DNA of 63,837 bases, filler included, from Malassezia furfur (GCA_052055015.1; 3 parts of 3 records of this genome joined end to end with filler, not necessarily neighbours in it); one strand, 5' to 3'; counted from the first letter of the whole stretch, positions 1,995 through 61,003 are shown. Made by a program: numbers and translations. Notes: a model not told the origin generated them from the letters alone.

Positions 1995-2786
1995 CTATGC
2001 CAATTCGGCGTCGACCACATACCGGTCGCCTACATTCTCCACAGGGTATTTTTGGGGGGTATACCGGCGCCGGTGCCAAGAACGCACGAGGCGCTGCGCC
2101 TCGGCGGTCGATTCGAGCCGCACCAAAAACCAGGCATCTGTGCCGGCCGCGTGCCTGTGTGAGCAATGCCGAAGTGACGTACAAGGGGGGAAGTTTGAGC
2201 ACGCTGTTGGGGGCCGGCAGGGCGCCGAGTCCCAACAACTCCGACGGCAAGCGAGCGCCGTCGTCGTTGCGCGCAAAAGGCACGAGACTGTCGAACACCA
2301 GTGGTGTTGGCGTGCCCATCTCGCCTACGAGCGCATAGTTCCGCCGCAGCTTTTTTTCGAGTTTTTCGGCGGTGGTCTGCAGAGGGAGATTACGCAACAG
2401 CACACAGCGCATCGGCTCGGCGGTCAGGACGTCGAGCGCAGTGTAGAGCGTATGTGGCCTGCCCTCGTATTGCGTGCGCATCGTTTCACGCGCCCTGTCG
2501 AGTGAAAGCTGTGTGAGTGATCGGAACATACCTCGCTAGCAGCGATCTCGCGCCCGCCGGCGAGCTTGGCATTCACGCGGTGAGCGGCCCATGCTGGGGG
2601 TCGCTCACTGGGCAGTGTCACGATCGCCGAGCCGGACGGCTGGAGAAACGGGGTGCGGAGCACATCAATACGGACCTCGGCAGAACCCCCTCCGAGCCGC
2701 CAAATATCTTGGGGTAGGGCAGTCCGGGGTAGATTGCGCAACAGTACGCACGGTTTCATGCTTCGTCCGTGCCGCACCGGCCCCAT
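1995..2786 (-). CDS. Protein with two RRM-like segments, possibly mitochondrial RNA-binding; 3 exons
   Basis: Duplicated CVLLRNLP motif and WFLVRLESTAEAQRLVR; three ORF pieces join in frame after removing GT-AG introns 2509-2531 (23 nt) and 2155-2182 (28 nt); start is either ATG 2786 or 2759. Confidence 0.65.
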
Positions 2787-2980
2787 CTGGCGGACTAGGG
2801 CTTAAGTTTGATGTCGGCGTTGTTCGGCGCTAGTACGAGGGCCAATCAAATTTATGCCAATGCGCGAAGCCAACACTCGTAGGCCATAGTGGCGCGACTT
2901 TTTTTTATTTGCTGATTCTGGCCCGACTAGACATCTTTTGGGGAGGTACGTGGAGCTCGTCTTGCTCCCTTACCACGACG

Positions 2981-4537
2981 ATGATCGCTCCTGTCCTGCG
3001 CGCTGCCGTGCGCAGCGAAGTGCGCCCCCTTGTGCGCAACTTCACGAGCTGCCGCCCTGTTTTTAAAACGACGAGCCACTCCAAGGTGGTTTCTTCGGTG
3101 GAGGAGGCCATCAAGGACATCAAGTCGGGCGATACCATCATGGTGGGTGGTTTCGGGCTGTGTGGCACGCCCGAGACGCTCATCACTGCGCTGTCGAAGC
3201 GCCCTGATGTCAAGGATCTCCACGTTGTGTCGAACAACATGGGTGTTCCTGGCGGTGGTCTGGGCCTCCTCGCTGAGGCCGAGAAGGTCAAGATCGCCAT
3301 CGGCTCGTACGTCGGCGGGAACAAGTCGTTTAGCGACCAGTTCATCCGCGGCGATGTCATGGTGCACCTGGTTCCTCAGGGCTCGCTTGCCGAGAAGATC
3401 CGTGCGGGCGGCGCGGGTATCCCCGCGTTCTACACTGCCACGGGTGTCAACACTGCTGTCGAGAACGGCGAGCTGATCATGCAGTACAAGAAGCAGACGC
3501 CCGAGGAGAAGGAGAAGGGTGTGCCGCTCGAGGTGGTGCGCTACTCGAAGCCGCTCGAGACGCGCGAGTTTGACGGCCGCAAGTACGTGCTTGAGAAGGC
3601 GATCAATGCCGACTTTGCGCTGGTCCACGCGTGGAAGGTCGACGAGGCCGGCAACGCCATCTTCCGCCGCACTGCGCGCAACTACAACGACGTCATGGCG
3701 CGCAACGCCAAGGTGACCATTATCGAGGCCGAGGAGATTGTGCCCGTCGGTGAGATTGACCCTGACCACATCCACCTCCCCTCGGTGTTCACCAACCGCA
3801 TTGTCAAGGCGGAGCTGCCGCTCCACACCGAGTTTGTGCGTCTGTCGAAGCCCGACGCGGACAGTGGCAAGCCGAAGACCCCGACGAGCTCGCGCGACGT
3901 GATTGCCTCGCGCGCCGCCAAGGAGCTGAGCGACGGCATGTACGTCAACCTCGGTATTGGTATGCCCGGCCTGGTGCCGAGCTGGCTGCCGGAGGGCGTC
4001 AATGTGATGCTCCACGCCGAGAACGGTCTGCTAGGTATCGGTCCGTACCCCTCGAAGGAGTCGGACGTCGACCCCGACCTGATCAACGCCGGCAAGGAGT
4101 CGATCACGTTTGTGCCTGGTGCCACGTCGTTCGACTCGAGCGACAGCTTCGGCATTGTGCGTGGTGGCCACCTCGACGTGACGATGCTCGGTGCGCTGCA
4201 GGTGACCTGCGACGGTGACCTGGCCAACTTCATGATCCCGGGCAAGTTTGTCAAGGGCATGGGTGGTGCCATGGACTTTGTGTCGAACCCCGACCAGACG
4301 CGCGTGATTGTCCTCACGGAGCACGTGGACAAGTACGGCCGCCCCAAGGTGGTCGAGAAGACCTCGCTGCCGCTCACCGGCAAGCGCTGCGTCGACATGA
4401 TCATTACCGACCTTGCCGTGTTTGAGGTGAACCGCAAGGACGGCGGCATGACCCTCATTGAGCTTGCGCCTGGTGTGACCGAGGAGGAGGTCCGCGAGAA
4501 GACCGGTGCCCCCTACAAGGTCGCGCTCAAGAAGTAG
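2981..4537 (+). CDS. OXCT1: Succinyl-CoA:3-oxoacid CoA-transferase (SCOT), fused A/B domains, with mitochondrial presequence
   Basis: [41 protein letters not shown], catalytic HAENG, GMGGAMD; Arg-rich N-terminus from ATG 2981. Confidence 0.93.
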
Positions 4538-6876: not shown

Positions 6877-8193
6877 ATGGTGAAGTACGTATGCGCGTTT
6901 TGAGTATACTGACCGCAGAGAGACAAAGGTATGCTGGCATTTGCGCGTTTGTCCCGCTAACACGGCAGCTATATGATTTGCTCGGCGTAAACCCCTCGGT
7001 TTCCGACTCGGAGCTGAAGAAGTAGGTGGCACACGACTGACTCCAGGGCATACCGTAAGAAGGCATTGGCCTTGCACCCCGACAAGGGTGGTGACCCCGA
7101 GCTCTTCAAGGAGGTCACCGCTGCATACGAGGCGCTGTCTGACCCGGAAAAGCGCGAGATGTACGACCGTTTCGGTATGGACGGCCTGAGCGAGAGCGGC
7201 GGTATGGGTGGCGGCATGGACCCCCAGGACCTGTTCTCGCAGCTGTTCGGCGGCGGCGGTGGCTTCTTCGGCGGTGGCGGCCGCCCCAAGGGCCCGCGGA
7301 AGGGCAAGGACCTGATCCACCGTGTCAAGGTCACGCTCGAGGACCTGTACAAGGGCAAGATCACCAAGCTTGCGCTCCAGAAGCACGTGCTCTGCTCGTC
7401 GTGTGAGGGCCGCGGCGGCAAGGAGGGCTCGGTGAAGACCTGCGACACCTGCAAGGGTCAGGGTGTCAAGGTTGTTCTCCGCCAGCTCGGTCCGATGGTG
7501 CAGCAGATGCAGCAGCCGTGCCCTGACTGTGACGGCACGGGTGAGCGCATCGCGCCCCAGGACCGCTGCAAGGCCTGCAACGGCAAGAAGGTTACCCAGG
7601 AGCGCAAGGTGCTCGAGGTCCGCATCGACAAGGGTATGCAGGACGGCCAGCAGATTACCTTCAAGGAGGAGGCCGACCAGGCGCCCAACACGATTCCGGG
7701 CGATGTTATCATTATTGTGGACGAGCAGCCGCACCCGCGCTTCAAGCGCAAGGTTAACGACCTGTTCGTGGACGTCAAGGTGGATCTCCTTACCGCGCTG
7801 GCCGGTGGTAAGGTGAGCATTGAGCACCTCGACGACCATGCGCTCTCGGTTGAGATCCCCGCGGGCGATATCATCAAGCCTGGTGACATGAAGGTGCTCC
7901 GTGGCCAGGGTATGCCCTCGTACCGTCACCATGAGCCGGGTGACCTGTATGTGAACCTCTCGGTGGAGTTCCCCGAGTCGCTCTCCGAAGAGCAGATGGG
8001 TCTTCTCGAAAAGGCGCTCCCGCCGCGCAAGCGCCCGGCCAACCTGCCCAACAATGTCGACGTCGAGGACGTCATTATGGACAACATCGACGACAGGGAG
8101 GCCCACCGCGCGCGGACTGGCCCCTCCAACACCATGGATATGGAGGACGACGAGGCTGGCGGCGGTCCGCAGGTGCAGTGTGCCCAGGGTTAA
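6877..8193 (+). CDS. YDJ1: Type I Hsp40/DnaJ co-chaperone; 4 exons including a 10-nt micro-exon (6919-6928)
   Basis: Splicing out 6885-6918, 6929-6968 and 7022-7046 gives MVKETKLYDLLGV...[17 protein letters not shown] region, four CxxCxGxG-type repeats, C-terminal CAQG. Confidence 0.95.
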
Positions 8194-8274: not shown

Positions 8275-9256
8275 CTAAACGTTACTCTCGAGCTCGGCCT
8301 TCTTCGCCTCGGCCTCGGCCAGACGGCGATCGAGGTCCTCCAGCTCACTTGCTTGCGATTCGACCGATGCTTGGCTGCATGTCAGTGGGTCCACGTACAT
8401 CTGCTTCACGCGCTCCTCGATCGAGGACAGACCACTCTCCGCTTCCGTCCCGACCGACAGCGAGGTGCCCGAATTGGAGAGCTCAGGGAGCGTCGGCGCC
8501 GAGTTGGCAGGGTACGCATCCTCGCCTTCGGCTGCCATATCCAGGTCCGCGTCCGTGCGGCCGCCTGCGGCAATGTCTGCAACGTGGAACAAGACAGGGT
8601 CGTCACTGTCGACTTGGTCGGGTGCGAACTGGAAGAGACGGACCTCGGCATTCGTCCAAGGGTACTCCTCCTGAATCACACGACGCAAAATATCGCCGTG
8701 TGCAACCAGCACAATGTGTTCTTCCGGACGTTCGAGCAGGTGTTGCCGAATCCACTTGGCACGTGCGTTGAGTGAGTCATGGTCGGCGGCTGTGTGAGGG
8801 GGTTGACATACCGTAGAAGCCTTCCTTGCTCGTCCACTCGGGCGTCAGGTTGGACAGGTCGAAGCGTGCAAACTCGGGGTGAGCTTCCAGCACCTCGCGT
8901 GCCGAGCCGGTATCGCATGGCAGTGCGTTGCATTCTGCGGTGAGCGCAAGCACATACCCTGAAGCTGAGGTAGACAGACCACCTCGGCGTGTCCGCCTAG
9001 ACGGTCCACGGCATCCGAGAAGCCGAGCGAGACCGTCTGCAGCGTCCGGCGCAGGGGCGAACTGAGGATCACCTGCGCCGTCTGCTGCAGCTCCGGGGTG
9101 AGCCCAGGGAGTCGCGAGGCTTGACGCTTGCCGAGATCGGTCAGAGGAGCGTCAGGAATCGAATAATCGTCTTCAACGTTCTGAATTAGTTGCGATCGTA
9201 CGTACGTGCTCGGCCTGAGCATGCCGGGTCAAATAAATGCGACTTGTGGGGGCCAT
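8275..9256 (-). CDS. Histidine phosphatase / phosphoglycerate mutase family protein; 4 exons
   Basis: Spliced [18 protein letters not shown]...[10 protein letters not shown]...PCDTGS...VLVAHGDIL; introns 9181-9205 (25 nt), 8935-8957 (23 nt), 8790-8811 (22 nt). Confidence 0.9.
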
Positions 9257-9331: not shown

Positions 9332-9805
9332 ATGCTGGGACTCAAGTCAACGATGTCGGTACGTATGCCTATGTCTCATCTAGATTATCGACAACTCGGG
9401 CGGTCTGGTTGCAGAATGCATCAACGTGCTGCGCTACAAGTCCTCGAAGGGGCTGGGCCGGGTCGGTACGTTGGCCTCTTAAGGTTCTTCTTTCTGACAC
9501 TCGCAGGTGACGAAGTTGTCGTTGTCGTCCAAAAGGCGCGCCCCATTCCTACCAACCAGATACCTGGTAGCTCGGCTAACGCGCTGAAGGTGCGCCGCGG
9601 CGATGTGCGCCACGCAGTGATCGTGCGCACCAAGAAGGAGGCGCAGCGTCCGGACGGGCGTGTCGTCAAGTTCGACGACAATGCTTGTGTCCTGCTGAAC
9701 AACCGGAAAGAGCCGCTGGGCACCCGTGTGAACGGTGTCGTGTCCAGCGAGCTCCGTGAGCGTGGTTGGGGCAAGATTCTCAGCCTTGCGCCAAAAGTCG
9801 TTTAG
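9332..9805 (+). CDS. MRPL38: Mitochondrial ribosomal protein uL14m; 3 exons
   Basis: Spliced IIDNSG...ECINV...[35 protein letters not shown]; introns 9359-9383 (25 nt) and 9466-9506 (41 nt). Confidence 0.93.
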
Positions 9806-9821: not shown

Positions 9822-11746
9822 CTATGGCTTTGCTTTTTCTTGTTCCTTCATCTCCTGTGCACGCCGCGCGATCTCCTCCGGGGCAAGGCTGCGGTGCTGC
9901 TTCTTGCGGTGTCCCTTGGCCGCAGTTCCGGGGCCCCAGTTCGCTTGCGGGTTCATCTGGTACCGAACGGCGTGCTTCTCCGACGGTGTACCGTGGAGGA
10001 TAGCGTCGGTGCGTTCGTTCGGTGTCTCGTAGTCAAATGCGCGCCTTGTTGCGGGCGTGCCATCCTCGTTACGCCGCGAAAGGAGGCCCTGAGCCGCCGA
10101 TCCTTCCTTGAGACGCTCGGGGTTGACAGGGTGCTCCTTAATCCAGGAGCGGAAGAGGTCATACACTTCGCCGCGCGATGCATTCGTCTTGATGGAGCCT
10201 GCCACGCAGTGCGACCGCGAGACGTCAAATCCAGCGTTCAAAAGGGCGTGTCTGCGTTAGGATGGTATACGTACACCACGGGTGCCAGCGGCGGCGAGGT
10301 GCAATGGAAGAGACCGGCCACTTTGGCGGGGTGGAAATAGAACGGCGCATCCAATTCCTGGGTCAGTGATTGTGTACGTACGTCGCGTGCGGTGGAAACC
10401 ATACCCCGAATACGCGCCTCGGTGCCGAACGTGTGCTTGCCCGAATCCAGTGTCTCGAGAATTTCGTCACAGAATTCCGAGTCTTGAATTGGGCCAAACC
10501 ACATCGGACCGCCCACATGGAAGGAGCCCCCACACTCGCCGCAGCGCATGTCGGTGGGCGGACCCGGTGCAGAGCCAAATTTGACGTTGGGCACACCCGT
10601 TTTGACGCTGGGTGTGGACGTTGCGCGGCCCATCGGCTGGATGTGGAAATCGCTGCACTTCCCACACGAATACACCAAACCGGTCTTGGATGCATTCAGC
10701 TTGACCGTTTCGGGCCGCGTCCACACGCGCACAAACACGCGGAGATAGAAGTCAATCGAAAGTGACAGCATCGGCTGGATGTAGCGCCCATACCGACCCG
10801 CTGCTGTGGCGATCGCGTGCAAAACGAGCCGAAGCGCAACCTCGTGCGAGTATTCGGCTTTGACACTGACACCACCGTACAGCGACCAGCACTTTTCGGG
10901 GTAGTTGTGGCCCGCCAGCACCGCCAGATCCGTGCACGTAACGCACAACAGACCACCGTCCGCGACCGACTGCACGGCGGCGTCCAAGAACGGTGCAGCT
11001 GTACCATATGGGTCAAGATCGACCACGTCAAAGCGCTTCGATGGGTCGCGGTGCTCGTACATCAGCGCAATAGCATCGCCCTGGTTGACATGCACTTTGC
11101 AATCCGGGTGAATCTGAAGATCGTCGGCGCTGGGTAGCTCCTTGGACTCCTGTGGCTCTTTGGTAACCGCCTCGCCAGCATCCTCCGTCTGCAGCTCGGC
11201 GACTTCTTCCAATGGCCGACCCGGGGGAAAGTTGAGTGCGAGATTTCGGCGCATGGCCTGCACTGCGCTGTGCGAGAGATCATTGGCGAGGATCGAGCCA
11301 AGCAGCGGGATCTCCTTGGCATAGCGAATGCTGCGCAGGCCTGTTGCGCTCAGCGCCTCGAGAATGTTGAATTTGTACGAGCGGTACTCTTCGTCGATTT
11401 TGGCGCGCTTGTTTTCCGGCTCACCACGCTTGGCGCGCTTGGCATTGCGCGTCTCCATGTGTGCGATGTACCGCTGCTTCTTCTCACGATCGAGAATCTG
11501 GCTCCATGAGATAATGGCCAGCGTGCTCAGGTCGCGATTGAACTCTTGCACCGGGTTCAGGAACGCGGCTTCCTTCGAAGGCATGACAATGGTCGCGCTG
11601 TTTTCGCGAAATGCGGACTCGTTGCTCTTGATGTGAATGCCGCGTTTCGCGACCGCATCGGCGCTCAGTAAAATGGGCTCGGGTGCCATGATGCGCAGTG
11701 TCCTCGTCCAAGCAGCGAGTCGTATGCCGCTCGACGCACCAGGCAT
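9822..11746 (-). CDS. TRM1: tRNA (guanine26-N2,N2)-dimethyltransferase; two in-frame ATGs (11746, 11689)
   Basis: FLNPVQEFNRDLS, ILEALSATGLRSIRY, DVVDLDPYG, GGPMWFGPI, HALLNAGFDVSRSH; introns 10358-10381 (24 nt) and 10252-10274 (23 nt). Confidence 0.95.
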
Positions 11747-19173: not shown

Positions 19174-20565
19174 CTATGGCTTCATCCGCGCCGGCACCCA
19201 GCGGCGGATGCCCACCTCTTTCACACGGAAGAGGCCACGTTGCAGTGCCGCGACCAGATCGCTCGGGCACGCAAGGTCGAGCGCGGCGCATTCGGCGCGC
19301 GACGGCACAAGCACATGCGCAAGAATCAGGGTCTGGCGTTAGTCATGCCACCTACTTTTTGCACCTGGCTGTTGACGCGGTTCACCATGCTGAACCACAC
19401 CCAGCTCTTGTCGCCCTCGTTGTGGTGCGCACCAAACGGAGAATGCATCGCATCGGCCTGGTCCGTGTACTCGGGAACGACCAGCACCGCAAACTCAGCA
19501 TGGCTAAACACCGGCCCCCGCTTGTACAGTAAGTAATCCACACAGAATTTCGAGCCGTTCTTCACCACCCAGCCGAGGCTGCGGAAATGGTGGTACACAA
19601 TGTACGACAGCACAAATGGGTTATCCGCCCTCGACCACACCTCCTTGGGCGGCGACTGCGCCGACACACTCGGTGGCAGCCGAGAAGTCAGGCAGCATTG
19701 GTACAAGGCTTCCACAGACATGTACTGGTCCATTAGCATCGATGCCACCTACCCGGTCGTCTCCATCGTATACGTCAAGGCACCCCAGCATCCCTGCAAG
19801 GAAGAACGCCTCGACCAACGTCAGCTGAAAGTGCTCCACCCCTTCAATCTCCAAGGGGTCGTCCATCAGGTCCGAGGGAGCGGCACGCGACACCGACCCA
19901 GTGTCCTTCTGCGCCAGGTCCGCCGAGAAGTGCTTCAGGCCCTTTACACGGGCCACGCCGGCTTGGATCTCGGGCAGGTCTTCGTCGCCTCGCCAAAGCT
20001 GGGTATGGGCCGCGCCATGCTCGTCCGAGTCACGCGCAGCGTCGTCGTCCGGCGTTCCGCCCAGGGCGGTAATGCCATCAGGGAGTTGGATGCCTGCCTT
20101 GACGGCAGCACGCGCACGCTCAATCTTGAGCAGTTTGCGCTCTTCGCGGCGCTTCTGCGTCATTTGCTCCGCTGTCATCTCACCACGCTCGCGCGCGGTA
20201 AACTCGGCCTCCTTGCGTGCTTTCCAGGTGGGCTCGGACCGGCTCAGATTGCCCTTGCCGAAGAATCCATGCGTCCAGAGCTCAAGAGCATCTCCAGTAT
20301 CATACATCCACACGGATTTCGTCACATCGTCGTACCATGCCTTGTAGACAGGGGCATCCTTGGTCCGGTCGTAGAACCATTTGGTGCATGCATTGAACCA
20401 GTCCCACCAAGACTGGGACCCCGAAGCAGGCCTGGAGGTAGCCGAGTGACCGATAGGCAGCGGGTTTGCATACAGCTGCCGCTTGGCCTGCGTCGCTTTC
20501 TTCCCTGCACCCTTGACGTTGGGCAGCTGCGTCGCCTCAGGCATGGCAGGCGCGCTCCCACTCAT
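19174..20565 (-). CDS. SEN2: tRNA splicing endonuclease catalytic subunit; 3 exons
   Basis: GFFGKGNLSRSEPTW, EHFQLTLVEAFFL, YHHFRSLGWVVKNGSKFCVDYLLYKRGPVFSHAEF, spliced C-terminus KTLILAHV...RRWVPARMKP; introns 19725-19752 (28 nt) and 19333-19355 (23 nt). Confidence 0.93.
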
Positions 20566-22720: not shown

Positions 22721-23604
22721 CGCGGTGCCGGCGCCGGCGCCGGTCGCCGTCCCGGTGCGCTCGGTGCGGTGCGCGCAACCAACAGCCCGTCGCTCGGGGC
22801 CAAGCCGGGGAAGCTCGGTCTGGGTGTCCGCAAGACGGGCGCAGCGGCCAATTTTGACTTCGATGCGGCCGAGCGCCGTGTTAAGGAGGAGCAGGCGCAG
22901 GCGGCCGAGGCTGCGCGCGCTGCGCGCGAGGCGCAGCAGGCTGCGGACACTGCTGCCGAGGAGGCGGCGCAGCGCATGGCGGCCACGCGTGCGCAGGAGC
23001 CTGTGGCTGCACCTGCTCCGGTGCCGCGCGTTGAAAAGCCGTCGCCCAAAGCAAATCCCAACGTGGACCGGCTGGGGATGGGCTTCACGCGCCTGGGCCT
23101 GGCGCAGGCACGCAACCAAGCGGCGCTGAAGAAGGCTGCCGATGCCAAGAAGGAGAGCTTGGCGGGTACGTTGTGTGCTACTCACGTTACAGAGGCCGAA
23201 GAGACCAACTATGCTCGAAGCAAATTTGCGTCGCAGAAATGTGGGTGTCTGACACGCTGACCGCAGCCATTTCGTCGGACCAGTATTTCCAGCGCGGCGG
23301 GTACGACCCGAACCTGTCCTCCGAGGCCCAGACGCGCCTTGCAAACTTCCAGGGCCAGACGTCCATCTCTTCGAACCAGTACTTGTGCGTAACAATGCAC
23401 TGACGCAGCGGTCGCGACGAGGACGACGAGGCGGCCGACGAGATGCCGGAGCGGGACGACTTTGCCGACCTCGAGGCAAGTGCCAAGGCATACTACCGCA
23501 AGTTCATGTCGAACCCCGACGTGCAGCAGGGCATCGAGTCGTTCCGCTCGGGCGCGCTGAAGCTGTCGCAGTATCTCGAGGACCTTAGCCGCAACGGTGC
23601 TTAG
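22721..23604 (+). CDS. GLO3: ArfGAP Glo3/ArfGAP2-3, C-terminal part (5' end lost in gap)
   Basis: KLGLG and RLGMG motifs; paired Glo3 motifs KFASQKSISSDQYF and FQGQTSISSNQYFG restored by introns 23166-23192 (27 nt), 23241-23266 (26 nt), 23385-23408 (24 nt). Confidence 0.88.
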
Positions 23605-29778: not shown

Positions 29779-29795
29779 TGGTACAGAGCATGTTT

Positions 29796-38978: not shown

Positions 38979-40077
38979 CTAAGTCTGCAGGCGGTTCTCC
39001 ATCGCCCGCAGGTTCTCCTCCTTCGCGAGAAGCTGCTGGCGCTTCTCCATGATTTCGCGCTGGATGCGCAGTTCGATTTCCCGAAGCTTCTCCTCCTCGC
39101 GGCGGAGCTGCTCCTCCCGGAGGCGCACGCTTTGGTTCATCATGTCCTCGCTCGGCAGCGACGCATCCGGACCGAAGTCGCCCGGAGCACCGCGCGAGAG
39201 ACGCTCGGTACGGTAGTTCTCGTACAAGAAGTCGTGAGTGATTTCCTTCAGGTCGTTGAGGTGGGTGCCAAACAGCGCGCTCTTCAGCCGGCTAAAGTCG
39301 CAGTGCTCCGGGTTGTCCACCTCGACCGTGCCCCACGGGTATGCGCGGCCGAGGGTGACCTCGCCAGTCTCGGTGCGCACCTCTTCCTCAGAGCCGATCA
39401 CCGCGAACGGAAGCAGCGAGCGGAGCTCACTGTTCTCGGCGATCGTGTCGGGGTGGTCCTCTTCCACGTCGTATGGGAAGTTGTAGATGGGGATCTGGTA
39501 GTGCTCAATGTCCTCCATCACACGCCTCTTGAAGTCAATCAGCTCCTGGCGCCTGAACGAGTCCGACTTGGCGATGACCGGGATGACGTTCACGCGCGGG
39601 CTGAGCTTCTTCATCAGCTCGATGTCCATCTCGCGCAGGCCATGGCCGGTGGGCGCGATGAAGTAGATCAGCGCGTGTACACGGTTGTCGCGGAAGCGTG
39701 GATTGCGGCGGATACGCGACTCTTCGGCAAGAATGTCGTCGTACTGGCGCTCGAGGAACCCAAGGATCTCGTCAAACATGTACTCGTTGTCCATGCTGTC
39801 ACCAAAGCCCGGGGTGTCGACAATGGTCAGGCCAATGCGGGAGCCCTCGGCCTCGATCTCGAGGTTCACCGGCTGGATCCGCAGACCGGGCTCCACGCCG
39901 GCGTTTTGTGCGTTGTCGTCGTCCCGGTGTTCGATGACGTTGGATTCGCAAAGCGTGTTGACAAAGGTGGTTTTCCCTGCGAGGATGAGACGATGTTCAC
40001 GTACCTGTGCCACTCGCACCAACGACCATCATACAGAAGGACACACCCTTCTTCACTGCGCGACGTCGAGAAGCCAT
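38979..40077 (-). CDS. CDC11: Septin, Cdc11 group; 2 exons
   Basis: GASGTGKTTFVNTL restored by intron 39977-40004 (28 nt); DTPGFGD, RNPRFRDNRVH, AKSD, LYENYRTERL, C-terminal coiled coil. Confidence 0.9.
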
Positions 40078-41856: not shown

Positions 41857-42785
41857 ATGCCGCGAAGGATCCCCGTTCAGGTCACGCAGACCGTGAGTCG
41901 CCTGCTGGAGGGCGGGTACGTGAAGAAGCCGCCGGCGTGGTACGAGCCGACGCTCCGCCATCCCCCGGCGCTTGTCCCGCCGCGGCAGTCGCGCGAGCGG
42001 CCGGACAGCGACCTGCCCCGCGCGCTGCAGCGCGAGGCGCGCGAGTCGCTCACACACCGCGAGCGCCCGCACATGAACTCGCGCAAGAAGCTGCGCTCGC
42101 AGATGCCGCCGCTGCGTCCTCAACCGATCGTGTACGACGCGGACCGCATCCGCCGCCAGTTCTTCCGTGACCACCCCTGGGAGGCCAAGCGTGCTACGAC
42201 GCTCGTCGAGATGGACTATGAGCTCGAGGCGAACCCGGAGCCGCAGATCCCCAAGGGAGAGATGCCAGAGCTGATGCACTGGAGCCGGCTGAATCCGTCC
42301 GTCGAAGAGTACGTTTTGTTGACTCATGCAGCGTCATCCAATGCACCCTGCGCACCTGCCAGGACAGCGATCTGTCGCTCTCCCAGGCGTACCGCCGCAC
42401 GATCGCAGCTTACCATGCAACCCAGGCCGAGCGTGAGCACCGCATCCGCTATGCGAATTATGAGGCGCGCAGCCTTGGTGGTGACCTCGGCCGGTCAGAG
42501 ACCACGCGCGGTTTCGTGAAGGAGCAGCGCGAGCTGGACAAGTGGGCCGGTGTCGCACGCAAGGATGCTGGGCCAGTGCAGGACGACCAGGCCACGGCGG
42601 CCGGTACGCTGGCGCGCAAGAAACGCGTCGATTCCACGTTTACGGGCGGCGATGCCTATCTGAAGGCGGCAACGCAGCTGCGGGCCGGACAATCGGTCGC
42701 GCCATCGACGCCCTCGGTGCCGCGTGCAGCGCAGGATGCGACTGCCTCGGACGACTTCCTGGGCGTTGCCCAATCTCTGCGCTAA
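41857..42785 (+). CDS. RSM25: Mitochondrial ribosomal protein mS23; 2 exons
   Basis: PPAWYE...HPP, RPQPIVYDADRIRRQFFRDHPWEAKR; intron 42309-42331 (23 nt) joins the two ORFs in frame. Confidence 0.88.
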
Positions 42786-42829: not shown

Positions 42830-43609
42830 TTAGTCGGTCCCTTCGAGGTCCAGCTCGCCGTTCTCCACGAGCTCGTGCAGGAGCGCAAAGAAGCTAAACA
42901 CGGGGAAGCCCACGACGTTGCTGTAGTCGCCCTCTACGCCGCGCACGAGCAGGGCGCCCTTGCCCTGGATCGCAAAGCCGCCTGCGCGGTCGAGCCCCTC
43001 TTCGCTGTCGACGTACGCCTGCAGTACCGACGCGGGGGTGTCGGAGAAGTGCAAGCGCGTCTGCTCCACGAGTGTACGCACTTTGAAGCCCGGGCTCTGC
43101 AGGATGGGGTGCACGATTGCGACGCCAGTCATTGCCGTGCACTGCGTGAGCCTGGAAGCAACGTACCGAGTGTCCGCTGAGGTCTGCAAGCATGCGCAGG
43201 TTGTCCATCTTGTTCGTTGGCTTTTCCATGATCTCTTCGCCATACACGATGATCGTGTCTGCGGCAATCACCAGGTCTGGCGGAGTGTCGGGCTGCTCAC
43301 GCACAAGACGCTCGTACACCTCCATGGCCTTGTGCGACGCCGTCTGCACGGGGTACTCGTGCACCCCCTCGCCTGCAAATTCGTTCTTGGGCAGATCTTC
43401 TTCGAAGCGCGATGGAACAACTTCTGGGCGCAGGCCCTACCGTCAGCTGCAACTCGGTACCTACCACGGACGCGAGCAGCTCGACGCGTCGAGGGCTTCC
43501 GCTCGCCAGCACTATGCGCTTGTCTGGGTCAGATTCTCCACGCACTTTTGAGCCGCGTGAACACGGGCGTATCAAGCGCGTCAGCCTCTACACAGTTGAC
43601 GTTCGCCAT
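42830..43609 (-). CDS. Maf-family nucleoside triphosphate pyrophosphatase (YhdE/ASMTL-like); 4 exons
   Basis: IVLASGSPRR, FEEDL, VIAADT, EKP, DRAGGFAIQG, GDYSNVVGFP; introns 43524-43545 (22 nt), 43437-43464 (28 nt), 43142-43166 (25 nt). Confidence 0.92.
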
Positions 43610-45321: not shown

Positions 45322-45409
45322 TTGCCGACGAGACCGCGCTGGACGCCGTCGGGCTTAATCATGATGTAGGCTGGGTCAGTGCGAGTTGCATACTCTGCTC
45401 AGTCGCCAT
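45322..45409 (-). CDS. YNK1: Nucleoside diphosphate kinase, 5' fragment only (rest lost in gap; absent from the ORF track)
   Basis: Removing intron 45371-45393 (23 nt) gives [21 protein letters not shown], the canonical NDK N-terminus. Confidence 0.9.
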
Positions 45410-45523: not shown

Positions 45524-47758
45524 ATGCTGGTGCGTCCGATGGCCTATCGGCTCCCGACGGTGTGCGGTTTAGCACGTACATCGTCTTCCAGGTGGGCTGT
45601 TCGTCCGGCGCAGTGTCCCGCACTGCGCTTGGGCTTTTCGCGCGGCGCCCACTCGGCGTCCTCGGCGTATTCGTCCCCACGTCCATCGTCTCATGCTGCG
45701 TGGACTGCGGGGGGCATCGGCGCGGGCATAGTAGCCTACATCGCGCTCCAGGCAAAAGCGTTTGGCGAGGAGGAGAAGAATACGCAAGACAATCTCATCC
45801 CGCCAAATCCGCCTTCGGAAGAGGACATCGCGAAGCTGATGGAGGAGGACGGCGAGCCTTCTGTGCCAAAAACCACACTTGGCCGCGTTGGTGTCTTTCT
45901 GTACGACCACCTAATCATGCCGATCCTGGTGGTTAAGCGGTTCCTTGTGCTGGCGCTGCTCTTTGGCCCCGTGATCCTTGCAATTCCCCTGCTGTTTCTT
46001 GGGCGCGCCAAGACGACGCGCACTATGAGCGGACAGGTGGTACGTGGCGAGCGATGGGGCGCACTGTTGTGGTATGACTTTCTTGTTGCACAAATGGGCC
46101 GCGCAGGGCCGACGTTTGTCAAACTCGGGCAGTGGGCGGGTTCGCGACACGACCTGTTCCCCGATGAGTTATGTGAACGTTTTGCGAAGTTGCACTCGAA
46201 CAATTCGCCGCACGCATTCAAGCACACCAAGCGCGTACTCGAACATGCCTTCCAGAAACCGTTTGACGAAATCTTTGAGTCGTTTGACCGCACACCCGTT
46301 GGCGTAGGTGCGGTCGGCCAAGTCTACAAGGCGCGGGTCCGTTACAATCTACTCCCAGCGAGCTATCTTGAGGCTAAGCACCATCGTGAGAGCCAGCTTC
46401 CCGATGCCGCACAGCGCATTGGTGAAGAGCTCGCCCTGATGTACGAGCATGACGAAGAGCGCCGACCCACCGCCGCCGTCGCGATCAAAGTGCTGCACCC
46501 CAACGTGCGGCGGACGATCGGCCTCGACATCCGTATCATGCGTTTCTTCGCAAACACCCTAAACGCGCTTCCAGGCATGAAGTGGGTGTCGCTCCCCGAA
46601 GAGGTGCATCAGTTTGCGACGCTGATGTTCTCGCAGTTGGATCTGCGCCACGAGGCCTACAACCTCGCGCGCTTTGAGCGCAACTTTGCGCGGCGTAACA
46701 GTGCTATTTCCTTCCCCCGCCCGCTGCTCGACTTCTGCTCCAAGGACGTGCTCGTCGAGGAGCTGATCGAGGCCGTCCCGCTCAAGTACTTTTTGCGGCT
46801 CGGCGGCTTGGACTACGACGCGCGGATCGCCGATCTCGGTCTGGACGCCTTCTTGGTACGTGGCCCAACTGACCCAGAATATGCTTCTCATCGACAACTT
46901 TACGCATGCCGACCTGCACCCCGGCAACATCATGGTCAGCTTTTACCGGCCGACGACGCGCACCATCCTGCAGAACCTCTTGTCCCGCATCCTCGCCCAC
47001 TTTGACCCCGACTACCGCCTGAGCGCTCAGTACAAGACGGGCATTATTCCCGACAAGATGGTGGTTCAGGAGCTGCTGTCCAAGAAAGACGACGAGCAAG
47101 CCTGGCACAACGAGCTGCAGCTGATGGAGGAGGAGGGCTACCAGCCTGAGCTCGTGTTCCTCGACGCAGGGCTCATCTCGGAGCTCTCGCCCAAGAACCT
47201 GCGCAACTTTTTGGACCTGTTTGCGGCGATCGCGAACTTTGACGGGAAGCTTGCTGGCCGATTGATGGTGGAGCGGTGCCGCTCGCCGGAGCTCGTTACG
47301 GACAAGGCGGGCTTCGAGCGGACGATGGAGCACATTGTGAGCAGCGTCAAAAACAATACCTTCAACCTCGCCAACCTGCAGATCGGTGACGTGCTTTCCG
47401 AGGTGCTCAAGTCGGTGCGTGTATACCACGTCAAGATGGAGCCCGACTTTGTCGACACTGTGCTCAGTATTTTGATCCTCGAAGGCATCGGCCGCCGCCT
47501 GGACCCCGACTTGGATGTACGTCGCACCCACTGACCCAGCTTTTCCGTTCGGCAATCCCCATCCTGCGCAATCTGGGCCATCGTATGTCCGGCGACGAGT
47601 CGCAGCTCGCCATGCTCCGCGAGAACGCCAGCTGGAAGAACGTCTTCCCGATGATCAAGCTGTGGTTCTACGTGGAGACGCGCTCAATGCTCATGGGCCT
47701 CACTAACTCGCCCGAGCGCGTGGATGCGTTCATTCGTTACGGTTGGCTATCGGAGTAA
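45524..47758 (+). CDS. Mitochondrial ABC1/UbiB atypical kinase (ADCK2/Ypl109c-like); 3 exons
   Basis: GPTFVKLGQW, VAIKVLHP, NFTHADLHPGNI, FLDAGL, LEGIGRRLDPDLD-LF; introns 46856-46877 (22 nt) and 47517-47539 (23 nt). Confidence 0.9.
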
Positions 47759-47768: not shown

Positions 47769-48740
47769 CTATACATCGTCATGATTGTCATTCTCATCCG
47801 AGTCCTCCAGCTCGGCATCAATGTCGACCTCGCCAATGTCGTCATCGTTGTCGCTGTCGTCATCGACCTCGTCCAGATCGAATTCGACTTCCTCCAAGGT
47901 ATCTTCGTTGCCCGCTCCGTTCTCGGCATCTGACGCACCCTCATTCGTCTCCGAGTCGCCCGAGTCGGACGACACGGAGAAACCGGACGGGAAATCGGCA
48001 TCGTCCGACAAATCGAGCTCGTCGGCCTGGTCGCCCGCCGTCCCTGCCTCACTGGACGCTGCACGCGCCGAAGGCGCCAAGCGCTGCGACGCATTGTCTT
48101 TGCTCTCGCTCTCGTGTGCAGCCAATGCACCCGCCGACGGCTTCTCACCATTCGCCGCCTTGCTGCCACTCTCCGCTTTGGCCTGTTCCTTGGCTGTGGC
48201 CGACGGTGTCGACGTCCGGTCCACTTTCTTTTGTTTCTCGGAGCCATTCGCGCGTAGGGACGTCGGCGACGCGGCACGTTTGCGCGGAAGAGCCGCTGAT
48301 TTCATACTGGGAGACTCCGGGGCTGGTGTGCTGCTCAACAGACGTGTGTTTGCTGCATTCGAGGATGTTTTGGCGCTGCGCGTCGAACCTTTGCGCGCCA
48401 TTTTGGCACCCATACCCATACACTTTTCGAGGTGCGTCGCGTATCGATTCGATGACACCTGGCGCGAGCACACGAGACACTCGAACAACGGGTTGTTCGA
48501 GTAATAATCAGTTTTGGTGCCGTTGGCTGCAGCGGTGGGGTCGGAATTGACTGGGTTAGTGCGATGCCTACCATGTTTGGTACAGCTGCGTCAGAGCCTC
48601 GATACGTACAACTCCCCGCACTGCGGGCACTTCCGCTTGGAACGCTTCACCGCAGAATGCACATCGAGCGCTGTATCCACCACAAGCTCGTTCAGGAGCG
48701 AGCCAAGGAGCCGCGACGTGAAGAGCGCCTTGGGGTCCAT
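47769..48740 (-). CDS. SGF11: SAGA deubiquitination module subunit Sgf11 with long acidic tail
   Basis: N-terminal helix LLNELVVDTALDVH; zinc finger FECLVCSRQVSSNRYATHLEKCMG; intron 48586-48609 (24 nt) and probable intron 48551-48571 (21 nt). Confidence 0.85.
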
Positions 48741-55561: not shown

Positions 55562-56619
55562 TTACACGACCGTCTCCTTGGCTGCGGGTCAGTGGGCCAG
55601 TCATACGTACGGAACTTGAGCACGGGGCCGACCTGGCCGATGCACATGCCGCCGAGGCGGTGGCCGATGTCGACCGCCTGCTCGATCGGCTTACCGAGGA
55701 TCAGACCCGCGAGCACGCCGCCGGCGAATGCATCGCCCGCGCCGTTGCTGTCGACAATGTCGTCGACCTTGGGCGTGGGGTGCGTGAAGGTCTGCGTGCC
55801 GTTCTGCACAGCACGGATCGTCGACTCGCTGCCGTGCGTGATGAGCACGGTGCGCGGCTTGTCGATCACCGACGGCTGGTTGGCGATCGCCTGCGCGATC
55901 TCGCCGAGGTCGCGCGTCTCGAGGTTGGACGCCTGCGCCCACGCCTCGGCCTCGGACTCGTTGCCGATCACGAGCTCGGCATAGGGCATCACGGCGTCCA
56001 CCTGCGCCTTGAAGAACTGCGGGATGAAGGGCGCCGACAGGTTGAAGGAGAACATCTTGCCGGCCTCCTTGGCGTGCTTGGCGAGCACCAGCGCGCTCTC
56101 GACGCCGTGCGTCAGGAAGAAGCCGCCGAGGTAGAAGTAGGGAGCGGCCTCGATCGCGGCCTTGACGTCGGGCGTCTCGAGGTGCGCCTTGTCAAACTTC
56201 TCCGCAGCGCCCAGGTTGGTGCACAGCGAGCGGTCGTGGCCGGTGATCACCACGGCGCACGAGCCGGTGGGCACCACATCGTTCACCTGGTAGAGCGACT
56301 CGAGGCCCTCGCGTTCGTTGGCGGCGCGCAGCTGCTGCGCGAGGTCGTCCTTGCCGACGCACCCGATGTACGCGGTGGAGTTCTCCGGGAGGACGTACTG
56401 CACGGCACGCGCCGTGTTCTGCGCCGCGCCGCCGGCGACGTAGGTCACCTGGTAGTTCTCCACGATGTACTGGTAAATGGAGAGCTGCTGCTCGTTCGCG
56501 AGCACCGCGTCGTTCGACTTCAGGCCATACTTCTCGAGCACCTCCTCGCCGTCGCGGATCTGCATGTCGAGCAGCGGGTTGCCCATGGCAACGAGCTTGA
56601 GCGTCTTCGGGTCGACCAT
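55562..56619 (-). CDS. ADO1: Adenosine kinase; 2 exons
   Basis: MGNPLLD, AGGAAQNTAR, RSLCTNLGAA, NLSAPFIPQFF, DSNGAGDAFAGG; intron 55582-55610 (29 nt). Confidence 0.95.
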
Positions 56620-56694: not shown

Positions 56695-58300
56695 ATGAGC
56701 GAGAAGCAGGAGGCGGACTACACGGCCGAGGTCGACACGCTGCTCCCGCAGCTGGAGCAGGCGGTGCGCACCGGATCGTTGCAGAGTGCACTTGAGCTCG
56801 TCGCGCCGCTCGAGAAGCGCGCGCGCTCGGTACGTGTTTTGTCGACTGACGCAGGGCGCCGACTTGCTGAGCACCACGCGTCTGCTCCTCGTGAGCCTGC
56901 TCATGATCCGCACGACGCCGGACGTGCAGCACACCGACGTCCAGCTCCTGGACGAGACCATCCACGCATACTCCAAAAAGCACGGGCAGCTCAAGCAGGC
57001 CATCACACGCATGGTCCAGCTTGCGATGCTGTTCCTGCAGCCGCCGCAGCCCGCCGATGCGCGCGTTCCGGCGTCCATCTTTACCATTGTGGACAAGGAC
57101 GCGTTTGACGACGAGGACAAGAAGCGCGCCGAGGGCGAGGCGATGGACACGGACGAAAAGCCCGCGGACGCCACGCGCCCCAAGCCGGACGCCGAGGACG
57201 ACGACAAGGCCGGCCGCGAGGACGGGCGCATCACGGCGCTGATGCAGCAGGCGCGCGCGATCGGCGACACGGGCCTGTCCGAGGACATGCGGCTTAAGCT
57301 GATCGAGACGCTGCGCGAGGTCACCGAGGGCAAGGTGTTTGTCGAGGTGGAACGTGCGCGGGTGAGCCGCATGATGTCCGATCTGCTCTACGCGAAGGGC
57401 GACGTGAACCGCGCGGCCGACATCCTGCAGGACCTCGCGGTGGAGACGTTCGGCTCGCTAGAGCGCCGCGAAAAGGTCGACTTTATTCTCGAGCAGATGC
57501 GCCTCAACATGGAGCGTGGCGACTTCCACCGCGTCAACATGTTCAGCCGCAAGATCAATACCAAGTTCTTTGAGGACGAGGCGCAGCAGGATCTCAAGCT
57601 GCGCTACTACGAGCTGATGATCCGCGCAGGGATGCACGACGCCAAGCACCTCGAGGTCAGCAAGTACTACCGCGAGGTGCTCAACACGCCGTCGGTGCGC
57701 GCCGATGCGGAGAAGACGGCCGACACGCTGCGCAACGTGATCCTCTTTTTGATCCTTGCGCCGTACGACAACGAGCAGAGCGACCTGATGAGCCGCGTCG
57801 AGAAAATGGAGCGCCTCGACACCGTGCCAGAGCACCGCAGCCTGCTCAAGTGCTTCACGACGCCCGAGCTGATGCGCTGGCCGGGCATCGAGGCGCTGTA
57901 CGGCGATCTGCTCAAGTCGACGCCCATCTTTGCGGGCAGCGCCGAGGCGGATGCGCGCTGGAAGGCGCTGCATGCGCGCGTCGTCGAGCACAACATCCAG
58001 GTCATTGCGAAATACTACACCAAGATCCGCCTGGAGCGGCTCGCGCAGCTGCTGGACCTGACGCCCGCCGAGGCGGAGGAGGCCCTTGCGGAGCTGGTCG
58101 TGAAGCGTGCGATCCACGCGCGCATCGACCGCCCCGCGAAGCTGATCGACTTCGAGGCGCGTCTGTCGGACGCCGAGGTGCTCAACCAATGGAGCAGCGA
58201 TATGGGCAAGCTGCTGCGCACTGTCGAAAAGGTGTCGCACCTCGTCGAGAAGGAGTGGGCCATCCAGCGCGCGGGTCTGGTCGTGCGCGCCCACGAGTAG
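56695..58300 (+). CDS. RPN5: 26S proteasome lid subunit Rpn5/PSMD12; 2 exons
   Basis: SKKHGQLKQAI, VTEGKVFVEVERAR, VETFGS, RVVEHNIQVIAKYYTKI, ARIDRP; intron 56830-56854 (25 nt). Confidence 0.95.
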
Positions 58301-58353
58301 CTTAACCCCCCCCGTAGTTGGCCACGTGGCCTCACCCGTTCGCCCGTGCGACC

Positions 58354-61003
58354 ATGGCCGCCCGCGTGGAGGAGGCGGAGCTGCTGCAGGCGTACCAACT
58401 GCCGACGCTCAACCCTCAGCAGTGGCATGCGACGGGCGATGCGCCGCACGGCGGCGACGGCAGTGGCGAGGAGTGGCACGACCCGCTCGGCCTGCGCACT
58501 ACGCTGCCCGTCGGCCGCGTCGAGCCTGCGCAGCGCCCGCAGGTGTCGATTGGGAGCAAGGCGTTTGACGCCAAGGCGTTCCTGAACACGGTGCACCCCA
58601 ATGCATCATTCGCGGACCTGTCGCGCGGTGCCGAGCAGCTCAAGGCGAGCATCTCGCAGCGCTCCGAGGCGCTCAAGGTGCTTGTCGACGAAAACTTTGA
58701 CCGGTTCGTGAGCGTCAAGGCGACGACCGACGGCGTCTTCCGCGAGATGGCGCTCGCCGGCGGCCCGCTCGCGCCCGGCGCGGACCTGGGCGTAGCGTCG
58801 CTGCGTGAGCCACTGCAGCAGGCGAACGCGCGCGCAGACCACGTGTTCCGCCCGGTGCTGGAAAACTACGTCAAGGTGATGAAGCTGCGCAACACGCTCG
58901 GCGTGTTCCAGCGCTCGCACTTCTTCTTCAACCTGCCCGGCTCGCTCAACGAAAACATCCGCGCGGGGCACTACGAGGCGGCGCTGCGCGACTACAAGAA
59001 GGGCAAGTACCTGCTCGAGAGCCGCCCGGGCCAGCTGCTGCCCGTGCAGGACACGGGTGCGTCCGGCGCACCGACCGAGGCGCAGCTCGTGCAGCAGCGG
59101 CGTATCTTTGCCAAGGTGTGGGACGCGGTGGAGGACGCCATGTACGACATGCAGAAGCGGCTGCTTGCGCACCTGCGCGAGCCGCAGCACAGCGTCGAGG
59201 AGCAGGAAAAGTGCATCGAGGTGCTCCTCGAGCTCGACCCGGCGACGGACCCCGTCGCGGTGTTCCTTGCGTCGCAGCACGAGCACATTCAGTCGCGCCT
59301 GCGCGCCGCATTTGAGCGCGAGCAGGGCGCGATCGACGCCGCGCGCCTCACCACCGACCACACGGGCCGCAGCGCCGCCGAGCAGGCGCGCGACCTGAGC
59401 CAGTGTCTGACGCTCGTGCGCACCGCGTACGGCACCAAGCCGTCGTTTGCGCGCGCGCTGCACGCGCCCGTCTGGGAGGCGATCGATCACATGGTCGCGA
59501 CGCTGTGCAGCACCGTCGTGCAGTCCGTGCCGACGTTTTGGCGCATCGCGCGCGACTACGCCGAGGGGCGCCTCGCCAAGGTCGCGCCCCACGCGGACAC
59601 CGCCGTGCATGCACAGGCGCAGCAGTGGGCGGCGGACAGCATGGCGCAGTTCACCACGCGGCTGTACGCCTTCTTTGGCCTTGCGCCGTTTGCGGCCCGT
59701 GCACAGGAGCCGCTGTTTGCGACGCTGCCCGCGTGGGTGCCCGACCCGTCGTGCTCGCTGAGCACCACGCACTACCTGAGCAGCATCCTCGGCTCGCTCA
59801 CCGACACGCTCGGCGAGTTCAAGTCGCTTGCGATCCCCGGCGTGACGCAGCGCCTCGAGGCGCTCGTGCTCGACGTGCGTTTCCAGTTCACCGAGGTGCT
59901 GTGCTGCCTGTGGCTGCGCGACGCACGGCTGTGCCACCACCTCGAGAACTGGGCGCCCAACTCGCAGCAGCCGGCGATCACCTCCTACCTCTTTTCGCTG
60001 AGCGTGTTCAACCGCTGGAACGCGCGCGAGGGCTTCTACATCGCCGACGGCCGCGCACGCATGCAGGGCACTCCGACGGCGCACGACACGCAGGTGCTTG
60101 CGGCATTCAGCGCGCGGCTCAAAACGACGTTTGTGCAGGCGCTGTACGCGTTCCTCGAGGGGATCGTCGCCGCGGCGCTCTCGCCGGACGCGGGTGCCGC
60201 ATGGGAGGCGCGCGCCGTCGACGCCAGCGCCCGGCCGACTGCACCCGATCGCGTACGTGCCACAACTGACGCAGGACACGCGCATTCTGCTGAGCGTCTC
60301 CAACCTGTCGCACCTGCGCACGCACATCATCGGGGCGTGGGTGAAGCAGTTCGAGGAGGCCTACCACGTGTCGCTCGCCGACGAGCAAGAGGTACGTGGC
60401 GCGCTTACCCAGCAACTCGTGAACACCTGCGCAAAGCTCGACAAGGAGCTGTTGCACGACTTTGTGCAGCGCAAGGGCGACGCCGTCTCTGCCGTGCTGC
60501 ACCGCGGCATCCTCGAGGGCGGCATCGACTGGGCGCACCACGACAAGCCGACGAGCGTGCATGCATTTGTGTACCAGGCGCTGCTGCTCCTCGTCGAGGT
60601 GCATGCACAGATCCGCGCGACGGTGCCGCCGCTCGTCTCGCGCGTCATTTCCGCACTGGTCGAGATCATGGCGGATGCGGCGCTCAGTGCGTACGGCCGC
60701 GTGCCGGTGTACAACAAGGGCGGCATGCTCCAGGCGACGCTCGAGATCGAGTTTGTGCACCAGACCATGTCGTTCCACGTATCGCCGAGCGCCGAGCAGT
60801 CGCTCAAGCGTGTCTACGAGACCATCAGCCAGCGCTACACGAGTACGAGCGGGGGCGCCGGCGAGCCGGACGCACTGCTCCCGGCCGAGCTCGAGGCCGT
60901 GAAGCACACGCTGATCGCAAGCCGCAAGGCGACCGCGCTCGAGTTCCTGTGCTTCCGCCGGCCCAAGACGGACGAGGGGCGCGGCAGCAAGTCGCGCAAG
61001 TAG
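58354..61003 (+). CDS. SEC5: Exocyst subunit Sec5/EXOC2
   Basis: DPLG, ISQRSEALKVLVDENFDRFV, FFFNLP, DYKKGK, GGMLQATLEIEF; intron 60253-60274 (22 nt) and probable intron 60392-60412 (21 nt). Confidence 0.92.

Follow-up and report, generated by a model that had tools for sequence, protein, structure and literature searches.

We identified 38 GT-AG introns of 21-41 nucleotides (nt) in a 63,837-nt stretch of yeast DNA (hereafter the window, meaning the whole stretch that was analysed), and we conclude, with a probability of about 0.88, that they are genuine U2-type spliceosomal introns of a yeast of the Malassezia furfur group, which carry ordinary fungal splice signals near the smallest possible size. 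The curated introns are located in 20 of the approximately 37 genes of the window, between positions 2155 and 60412, and total 1017 nt.

The window has a GC content of 61.6% and contains four masked runs of 44 N. Judging from the encoded proteins, it belongs to the nuclear genome of M. furfur or of one of its very close relatives: the exon translation of SEC5 is 99% identical to the M. furfur protein, those of CBS14141_000896 and GLO3 are 98% identical each, and identity of the same three translations to M. brasiliensis proteins is 85-100%. Near-identical named proteins, together with the compact gene arrangement that is known for the genus, place the window in a Malassezia nuclear genome. A Malassezia-like fungus had been guessed, correctly, in an earlier note made from the sequence alone.

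Intron set and enrichment over chance

The median length of the 38 introns is 25 nt, with 23 introns of 25 nt or less and 30 of 29 nt or less, which places the set, for this one window, in the ultra-short class where the bulk of lengths is below 30 nt. Intron density here is about one per gene. The earlier note had reported 40 introns with precisely these length counts, and the counts were reproduced exactly by the curated set, in which the five examples that it quoted (8790-8811, 43524-43545 and 45371-45393 on the minus strand; 46856-46877 and 60253-60274 on the plus strand) are all found. Its total shrinks to 38, and the candidates 19109-19174 and 32561-32587, both unverified, would make 40. 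The three modulo 3 length classes contain 9, 19, and 10 introns, and multiples of three are not significantly depleted (p = 0.23), as is expected of untranslated sequence.

The strict motif GT[AG]NG[TC]..CTNA[CT]..YAG with a total length of 18-25 nt occurs 25 times in the window, compared to 4.0 ± 2.4 (maximum 11) in 50 second-order Markov simulations, and longer size bins showed no enrichment in the same scan. Likewise, a GTAYGT-type donor followed by CTNAY anchored 1-4 nt before AG, with a total length of 20-30 nt, was observed 29 times, compared to a mean of 2.5 ± 1.4 and at most 7 occurrences in 100 simulations. A donor followed by the first YAG at 20-30 nt is by itself not enriched (162 against 151 expected). 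The strict scan gave 33 hits of 30 nt or shorter, each of which falls on one of 30 curated introns or on an alternative donor inside one of them. A chance origin of the motif set is excluded, and the pervasive ultra-short GT-AG introns that the earlier note had described are real by both the enrichment and the junction tests presented below.

Splice-signal anatomy

All 38 introns start with GT and end with AG, a requirement on which the candidates were selected, and their 5' splice sites conform to a GTRNGT-type consensus. The donor hexamer is GTACGT in 22 introns, GTATGT in five, GTAGGT in four, and another sequence in the remaining seven. Position +3 is A in 35/38 donors, position +5 is G in all 38, and position +6 is T in 35/38, with position +4 being C in 24/38 and A, the base that pairs best with the usual 5' end of U1, in a single intron (1/38). 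U12-type introns are characterised by the extended donor /RTATCCTT together with a branch site that resembles TCCTTAAC; the introns of the window do not belong to this class, as all 38 donors read GTA or GTG followed by N, G, and T or C.

The putative branch motifs are CTRAY-like, namely, CTGAC (18 introns), CTCAC (6), CTAAC (6), CTCAT (4), CTAAT (2), and CTTAC (2), such that CTNA[CT] is found in 38/38, a count that is partly circular. The putative branch adenosine is followed by five bases in 21/38 introns, by six in eight, and by 7-10 in nine, and is preceded by 15-19 bases in 27/38. The introns end with CAG in 35 cases and with TAG in three, position -3 being C in 35/38, and the consensus of the 3' block reads A(-10) C T N A(-6) C N C A G. 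The spacer between the donor hexamer and CTNAC is typically 6-10 nt long, with a minimum of 6, and consists of 49.5% pyrimidines at 52% GC; the introns overall have a GC content of 54%. No pyrimidine tract was found on either side of the branch site in the 38 introns. Thus, the architecture is that of a branch point anchored to the 3' splice site, with five or six nt after the branch A in 29/38 introns and without a pyrimidine tract. Counts over the 38 introns bear out the geometry described in the earlier note, with a branch A at -6, a lariat loop of approximately 16-20 nt, and no pyrimidine tract.

A typical intron reads, in its 5' to 3' order, as a donor hexamer (mostly GTACGT), an unbiased spacer of 6-10 nt, (A)CTNAC, one to a few bases, and CAG, which usually puts the putative branch adenosine at position -6. 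Such introns are predicted to be removed by the normal two-step spliceosomal chemistry under intron definition; exon definition is ruled out by the many micro-exons, which measure only 8-14 nt. As the introns have no pyrimidine tract, the branch motif and the terminal CAG probably act together as a composite 3' signal. The 21-nt floor is probably set by how little RNA can still connect the 5' splice site helix to the branch helix inside the catalytic core.

Junction evidence

To delineate the junctions, exons were searched separately, homologues were aligned to the window, and Pfam was run on stop-free exon sequences. Phases assigned from the longest flanking open frames were wrong in this GC-rich DNA in cases such as that of the intron at 60253, and the choice was made by homology instead. 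Overall, 25 of the 38 junctions were independently confirmed, five (three DnaJ introns, the septin intron, and the nucleoside diphosphate kinase (NDK) intron) have partial support, and eight have the motif and the reading frame alone. At the 25 confirmed junctions, removal of the intron from the mRNA is predicted from protein homology. Pfam coordinates are contiguous across 14 introns in nine genes (ARO2, TRM1, Maf, ABC1, MRP-S25, L14, CDC73, Chs7, and, for its 21-nt intron, SEC5); SEC5, the histidine phosphatase gene, GLO3, and Sgf11 have junctions that were confirmed by alignment with homologues; and a PDB alignment confirms the RPN5 junction. The SEC5 orthologues that were aligned extend from Malassezia to Agaricomycetes. 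In the four genes that were aligned end to end with orthologues, each discontinuity is a motif-bearing intron. The introns and the two unverified candidates are as follows.

2155..2182, minus strand, 28-nt intron, gene 1995-2759; motif, frame, and coding model only
2509..2531, minus strand, 23-nt intron, gene 1995-2759; motif, frame, and coding model only
6885..6918, plus strand, 34-nt intron of the DnaJ/YDJ1-type gene, after an 8-nt first exon; partial support, spliced N-terminus J-domain-like
6929..6968, plus strand, 40-nt intron of the DnaJ gene, after a 10-nt micro-exon; partial support, J-domain-like spliced N-terminus and start of the DnaJ profile
7022..7046, plus strand, 25-nt intron of the DnaJ gene; partial support, downstream exon opens at DnaJ profile position 20/63
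8375..8398, minus strand, 24-nt intron of the histidine-phosphatase gene; 8 residues missing in 4/5 Malassezia-group orthologue models, one model retaining an insert of its own; in frame, stop-free
8790..8811, minus strand, 22-nt intron of the histidine-phosphatase gene; exon up to the 8935-8957 intron fully conserved in 7/11 homologues, including ascomycetes
8935..8957, minus strand, 23-nt intron of the histidine-phosphatase gene; contiguous junction in the 7 exon-bearing homologues
9181..9205, minus strand, 25-nt intron of the histidine-phosphatase gene; contiguous junction in 10/11 homologues
9359..9383, plus strand, 25-nt intron of the mitochondrial L14 gene; 9-codon first exon from ATG, exon 2 opens at Ribosomal_L14 profile position 10
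9466..9506, plus strand, 41-nt intron of the L14 gene; profile 10-30 then 37-122, positions 31-36 being spanned by a split codon and 6 residues at the exon end that did not align
10252..10274, minus strand, 23-nt intron of the TRM1 gene; TRM profile position 339 upstream, 344 downstream
10358..10381, minus strand, 24-nt intron of the TRM1 gene; TRM profile to 311 upstream, next exon (27 residues) fits 312-339; in frame, stop-free
19109-19174, 66-nt candidate intron near the 3' end of the tRNA-splicing endonuclease gene; unverified
19333..19355, minus strand, 23-nt intron of the tRNA-splicing endonuclease gene; motif and frame only
19725..19752, minus strand, 28-nt intron of the tRNA-splicing endonuclease gene; motif and frame, weak Pfam order with the N-terminal domain upstream and the catalytic domain downstream
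23166..23192, plus strand, 27-nt intron of GLO3 (ArfGAP); 9 residues present in 0/11 orthologues, clean gap in 6
23241..23266, plus strand, 26-nt intron of GLO3; tblastn frame switch, contiguous junction in 9/11 orthologues
23385..23408, plus strand, 24-nt intron of GLO3; contiguous junction in 10/11 orthologues, in-frame stop if retained
23830..23854, plus strand, 25-nt intron of the chorismate synthase gene (ARO2); Chorismate_synt profile 1-47 then 49-327
25022..25054, minus strand, 33-nt intron of the MRP-S33 gene, located after the Pfam domain; motif and frame, in-frame stops if retained
29901..29934, minus strand, 34-nt intron of the CDC73 gene; CDC73_C profile 112-137 then 137-158
30012..30042, minus strand, 31-nt intron of the CDC73 gene; CDC73_C profile 2-109 then 112-137
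32561-32587, 27-nt candidate intron; unverified
38328..38363, minus strand, 36-nt intron of the Chs7 gene; Chs7 profile 54-115 then 115-286
38549..38585, minus strand, 37-nt intron of the Chs7 gene; Chs7 profile 2-51 then 54-115
39977..40004, minus strand, 28-nt intron of the septin gene; partial support, first residue of the downstream exon is Septin profile position 17
42309..42331, plus strand, 23-nt intron of the MRP-S25 gene; profile 7-134 then 146-225, approximately contiguous
43142..43166, minus strand, 25-nt intron of the Maf gene; Maf profile 20-95 then 99-186
43437..43464, minus strand, 28-nt intron of the Maf gene; Maf profile 1-17 then 20-95
43524..43545, minus strand, 22-nt N-terminal intron of the Maf gene; motif and frame only, links the ATG frame to the Maf frame
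45371..45393, minus strand, 23-nt intron of the mostly N-masked NDK gene; partial support, 5-codon ATG exon
46856..46877, plus strand, 22-nt intron of the ABC1 kinase gene; ABC1 profile to 156 with 23 residues left upstream, resumes at 182
47517..47539, plus strand, 23-nt intron of the ABC1 gene; motif and frame only
48551..48571, minus strand, 21-nt intron of the Sgf11 gene; motif and frame only, homologue lengths vary here; in frame, stop-free
48586..48609, minus strand, 24-nt intron of the Sgf11 gene, before a 14-nt micro-exon; removal restores a Cys/His motif seen in 6/12 representatives, in-frame stop if retained
55582..55610, minus strand, 29-nt intron of the adenosine kinase gene; spliced C-terminus matches the uninterrupted orthologous frame of L001 (see below)
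56830..56854, plus strand, 25-nt intron of the RPN5 gene; exon 1 residues 4-44 correspond to PSMD12 15-55, exon 2 starts at PSMD12 57/58, its residue 2 matching PSMD12 58; uninterrupted in L001
60253..60274, plus strand, 22-nt intron of the SEC5 gene; tblastn frame switch at 60252/60275 in 12/14 homologues, contiguous in 11/12 aligned; uninterrupted in L001
60392..60412, plus strand, 21-nt intron of the SEC5 gene; 7 residues missing in 11/12 orthologues, Sec5 profile 619-656 then 659-837; uninterrupted in L001

Among the partially supported junctions, the Pfam DnaJ profile begins at position 20 (of 63) exactly at the first residue of exon 4, and the 15-residue exon that is joined to the 5-codon ATG exon at 45371..45393 presumably represents the NDK N-terminus, which it resembles. 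Micro-exons between tiny introns were identified in the DnaJ gene (8, 10, and 53 nt, within 6877-7046), Sgf11 (14 nt, 48572-48585), and GLO3 (48 nt, 23193-23240).

An additional line of evidence comes from locus L001, where uninterrupted open reading frames occupy the positions of four introns of the window (adenosine kinase, RPN5, and both SEC5 introns), and their translations match the spliced products, such that the comparison works like a natural complementary DNA control. This locus (L001:2313-10331) is a metagenome contig of another Malassezia-like species (50% GC) and is syntenic with the window at 50.9-63.8 kb, the genes involved being those for an ABC transporter, adenosine kinase, RPN5, SEC5, SURF1, and NUO51. 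Given that L001 lacks four of the introns of the window, intron presence varies within the genus. A second locus, L002, seemingly has its own intron(s) in the RPN5 N-terminus; the introns of L001 and L002 are too few for a length statistic.

Gene content and rejected candidates

Gene models were obtained with a gene finder of our own build that uses two codon tables, and artefact models were removed by hand. The final set consists of 36 models, or approximately 37 genes in 64 kb when the N-interrupted NDK and GLO3 are counted. Genes at 24000-38000 have a GC content at third codon positions of ~0.57-0.63, compared to 0.8-0.89 in the rest of the window, and were missed with a single codon table. 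The pairs of 44-N runs at 22621-22720 (GLO3, ArfGAP) and 45222-45321 (NDK) interrupt both genes, and further introns may be hidden under them. No Pfam family was detected at E <= 0.01 for five gene models, at 1995-2759 (-), 20815-22614 (-), 25692-26624 (-), 48911-50002 (+), and 31476-32783 (-), the first of which holds two introns backed by the motif, frame, and coding model only. The gene for a tRNA-splicing endonuclease subunit (19087-20694, minus strand; tRNA_int_endo domains) itself contains two tiny spliceosomal introns. A scan of the window against Rfam gave 0 matches, and no small nuclear RNA (snRNA) gene was found in the window.

Further candidates were discarded. The segment 40806-40841 (36 nt, in frame, weak donor) is coding, as the 2-Hacid_dh_C profile is continuous across it (2-178), and 51708-51743 (36 nt, in frame, weak donor) did not enter any of the gene models and was therefore not included in the set. 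The candidate 58283-58317 would fuse RPN5 and SEC5; 63517-63635 is an edge artefact in a gene that runs beyond the end of the window; and 44364-44452 is an edge artefact that adjoins an N run. The candidate 9215-9282 is a gene-finder artefact that contains the true ATG, and 23166-23266, taken as a single intron, is really two introns and a 48-nt exon.

Alternative explanations

Several observations count against regarding all 38 segments as genuine introns that are spliced in the canonical manner. Splicing is predicted from the sequence, as are the branch points, and the involvement of a canonical spliceosome would follow from the canonical signals and from reports for other lineages with tiny introns. 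Eight introns have no evidence beyond the motif and frame. Furthermore, the candidates were seeded by a pattern that required a branch-like motif, which is what makes its presence in all introns partly circular; the enrichment and homology tests are free of this circularity. A separate gene finder that was blind to splice signals, meant as a non-circular check on the branch motif, recovered just 5/38 introns and merged genes, and was therefore uninformative. Finally, five of the nine introns with a length divisible by three are stop-free (8375, 10358, 23166, 48551, and 60392), and homology is not decisive at 48551-48571, where the lengths of homologues vary.

The strongest of the competing explanations is the mechanism proposed in the earlier note, according to which a gap of only 5-9 unpaired bases between the 5' splice site and the branch site, combined with the absence of a pyrimidine tract, would go with a changed early assembly, in which U1 and U2/SF3 are not bound simultaneously and the large U2AF subunit is needed little or not at all. 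The geometry fits, with 15-19 nt before the branch A in most introns, five after it in the largest class, and a spacer close to half pyrimidine, as do the micro-exons of 8, 10, and 14 nt between introns. The steric argument is a reasonable one, being the same as that published for human ultra-short introns, where the problem has been raised already at 43-65 nt (PMC4463651, in the text available), and a subset of human short introns is described as spliced with SPF45 replacing U2AF (PMC8363638). However, U2 snRNA and U2AF1/2 are reported in myxozoans and Stentor, with introns as short or shorter, in the accessible text of PMC13644364, so that tiny introns alone do not imply lost factors. Moreover, Yarrowia has anchored branch points without pyrimidine tracts despite its long introns, according to the available part of PMC2483917, and the feature thus needs no special pathway tied to length. 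We regard a changed assembly route as possible and rather doubtful.

Under a second and less likely explanation, some of the in-frame, stop-free introns of 21, 24, or 27 nt would be only partly spliced, with retention adding 7-9 residues and giving rise to isoforms. In addition to the stop-free introns and the variable Sgf11 site listed above, this possibility could draw on public models of other Malassezia species that translate orthologous introns (P0007, P0123, and P0162). Such models, however, look like annotation errors, the inserts beginning with a translated donor and being unrelated between species, and the inserts that would result from retention of the introns at 60392, 23166, and 10358 are missing from orthologues or break Pfam continuity. 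Partial retention is therefore improbable. That the segments are no introns at all, and represent chance motifs, assembly frameshifts, or decaying pseudogenes, is barely credible: spurious open frames are common in GC-rich DNA, and several candidates that were longer or weaker turned out to be wrong (40806-40841, 58283-58317, 63517-63635, and 44364-44452), but the motifs are enriched 6- to 11-fold over simulation, 33/33 strict hits of up to 30 nt map to curated introns or nested donors, 25 junctions restore conserved protein sequence exactly, and the identical architecture recurs in 20 different housekeeping genes. Hence, genuine U2-type introns with ordinary fungal signals remain the preferred explanation.

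Comparison with known systems

Table 2 of PMC5389616 gives 5350 curated introns for M. sympodialis, which average 30 bp and of which 99% are supported by RNA sequencing (RNA-seq), and introns down to 10 bp were permitted in the RNA-seq mapping described in the same source. For M. restricta, 2150 introns with a median of 30 bp are listed in Table 1 of PMC9241646, and the annotation outlined in the available text of PMC6473144 used a minimum intron length of 15-20 nt. A review mentions 'very short introns' in its accessible part (PMC7426719). These introns belong to the same genus and the same size class as those of the window; tiny introns are already known in kind and in this clade, and the novelty of the size mode falls, very short introns being already in print for Malassezia. 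By comparison, the window sample, from the M. furfur group, is shorter, with a median of 25 nt and a minimum of 21, and the available portions of the M. sympodialis and M. restricta papers give sizes only, with no branch-site position or splice-signal anatomy. What is added here is that the M. furfur group has a shorter mode, of 22-25 nt, together with an explicit account of the splice signals and evidence that such introns are mishandled in public gene models.

The lineages named for introns below 30 nt in the accessible text of PMC13644364 are ciliates, Microsporidia, and Dicyemida, with Malassezia unmentioned there, and M. sympodialis is treated simply as intron-poor in PMC8476143. A literature search found no branch-site position, splicing mechanism, or inclusion among the <30-nt lineages for Malassezia, which is weak evidence, as subscription journals and image-only supplements were outside the search.

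The closest likeness in splice-signal anatomy is with Yarrowia lipolytica, Trichomonas vaginalis, and Giardia lamblia, which, in the part of Irimia and Roy 2008 (PMC2483917) available, are described as having no pyrimidine tract and a strong WCTRAY-type branch motif at a fixed distance of 2-4 nt to the AG. The anchored branch without a pyrimidine tract is shared with the introns of the window. In contrast, these organisms are intron-poor and have longer introns, with medians of 204 nt in Y. lipolytica and 104 nt in T. vaginalis (PMC2483917, same part), whereas the window contains about one intron per gene, each 21-41 nt in its entirety. The same portion of that source lists ACTGAC as the commonest branch hexamer for Ustilago maydis.

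With respect to length, the counterparts are the ciliates, with introns of ~25 nt in Paramecium and 15-16 nt in Stentor and splicing by intron definition, according to the available text of PMC8997360 and PMC13644364. As far as these sources go, ciliates share with the window the total length, intron definition, and the puzzle of how the early complexes fit, but the splicing signals of Paramecium are described as weak, in contrast to the strong fungal-type donor and branch motifs of Malassezia at 54% GC. Microsporidia, Dicyemida, and Myxozoa show a convergent shrinkage of introns to ~20-30 nt in compact genomes; unlike Malassezia, these are parasites with highly reduced or fast-evolving genomes, and myxozoans are reported to have kept both U2 snRNA and U2AF (PMC13644364, accessible text). 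Human ultra-short introns (43-65 nt) have in common with those of the window the steric-hindrance argument and a truncated pyrimidine tract (PMC4463651 and PMC8363638) but are approximately twice as long, constitute a rare minority, and are often G-rich with weak signals.

Public gene models and significance

Three NCBI gene models of M. furfur were checked, and two of these skip a conserved exon between two tiny introns, in SEC5 and in the histidine phosphatase gene. In the SEC5 model P0002 (60253-60412) and the histidine phosphatase model P0121 (8790-8957), the exon (39 and 41 residues, respectively) and its flanking introns are fused into one 'intron' of ~160 nt. All three tiny introns are correct in the GLO3 model P0157. 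Furthermore, P0007, P0123, and P0162, from other Malassezia species including M. psittaci and M. vespertilionis, carry inserts of 9-10 residues exactly at intron positions of the window, and these inserts look like translated, unrecognised tiny introns, which would imply that distant Malassezia species have these intron positions in common. Automatic annotation fails on tiny introns, and proteomes and intron statistics of the genus are therefore biased wherever the minimum intron length was left at its default.

To conclude, tiny introns are the normal state of the genes of this genus and no peculiarity of the locus. In its boldest form, which we put forward only tentatively and as possible rather than probable, the picture would be that the introns of Malassezia, approximately one in each gene, are spliced at the lower physical limit of the spliceosome, that U1 and U2/SF3 are not together on the intron, that (A)CTNAC-N-CAG is read as a single 3' signal without a pyrimidine-tract step of the U2AF65 type, and that Malassezia is the first genetically tractable organism for the minimal-intron problem, which is known from ciliates, nucleomorphs, and myxozoans. 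Malassezia is transformable and CRISPR-editable. This study places a free-living, culturable, and transformable fungus among the lineages with introns below 30 nt, and the assembly of the spliceosome on 21-25 nt could be put to a genetic test in Malassezia.

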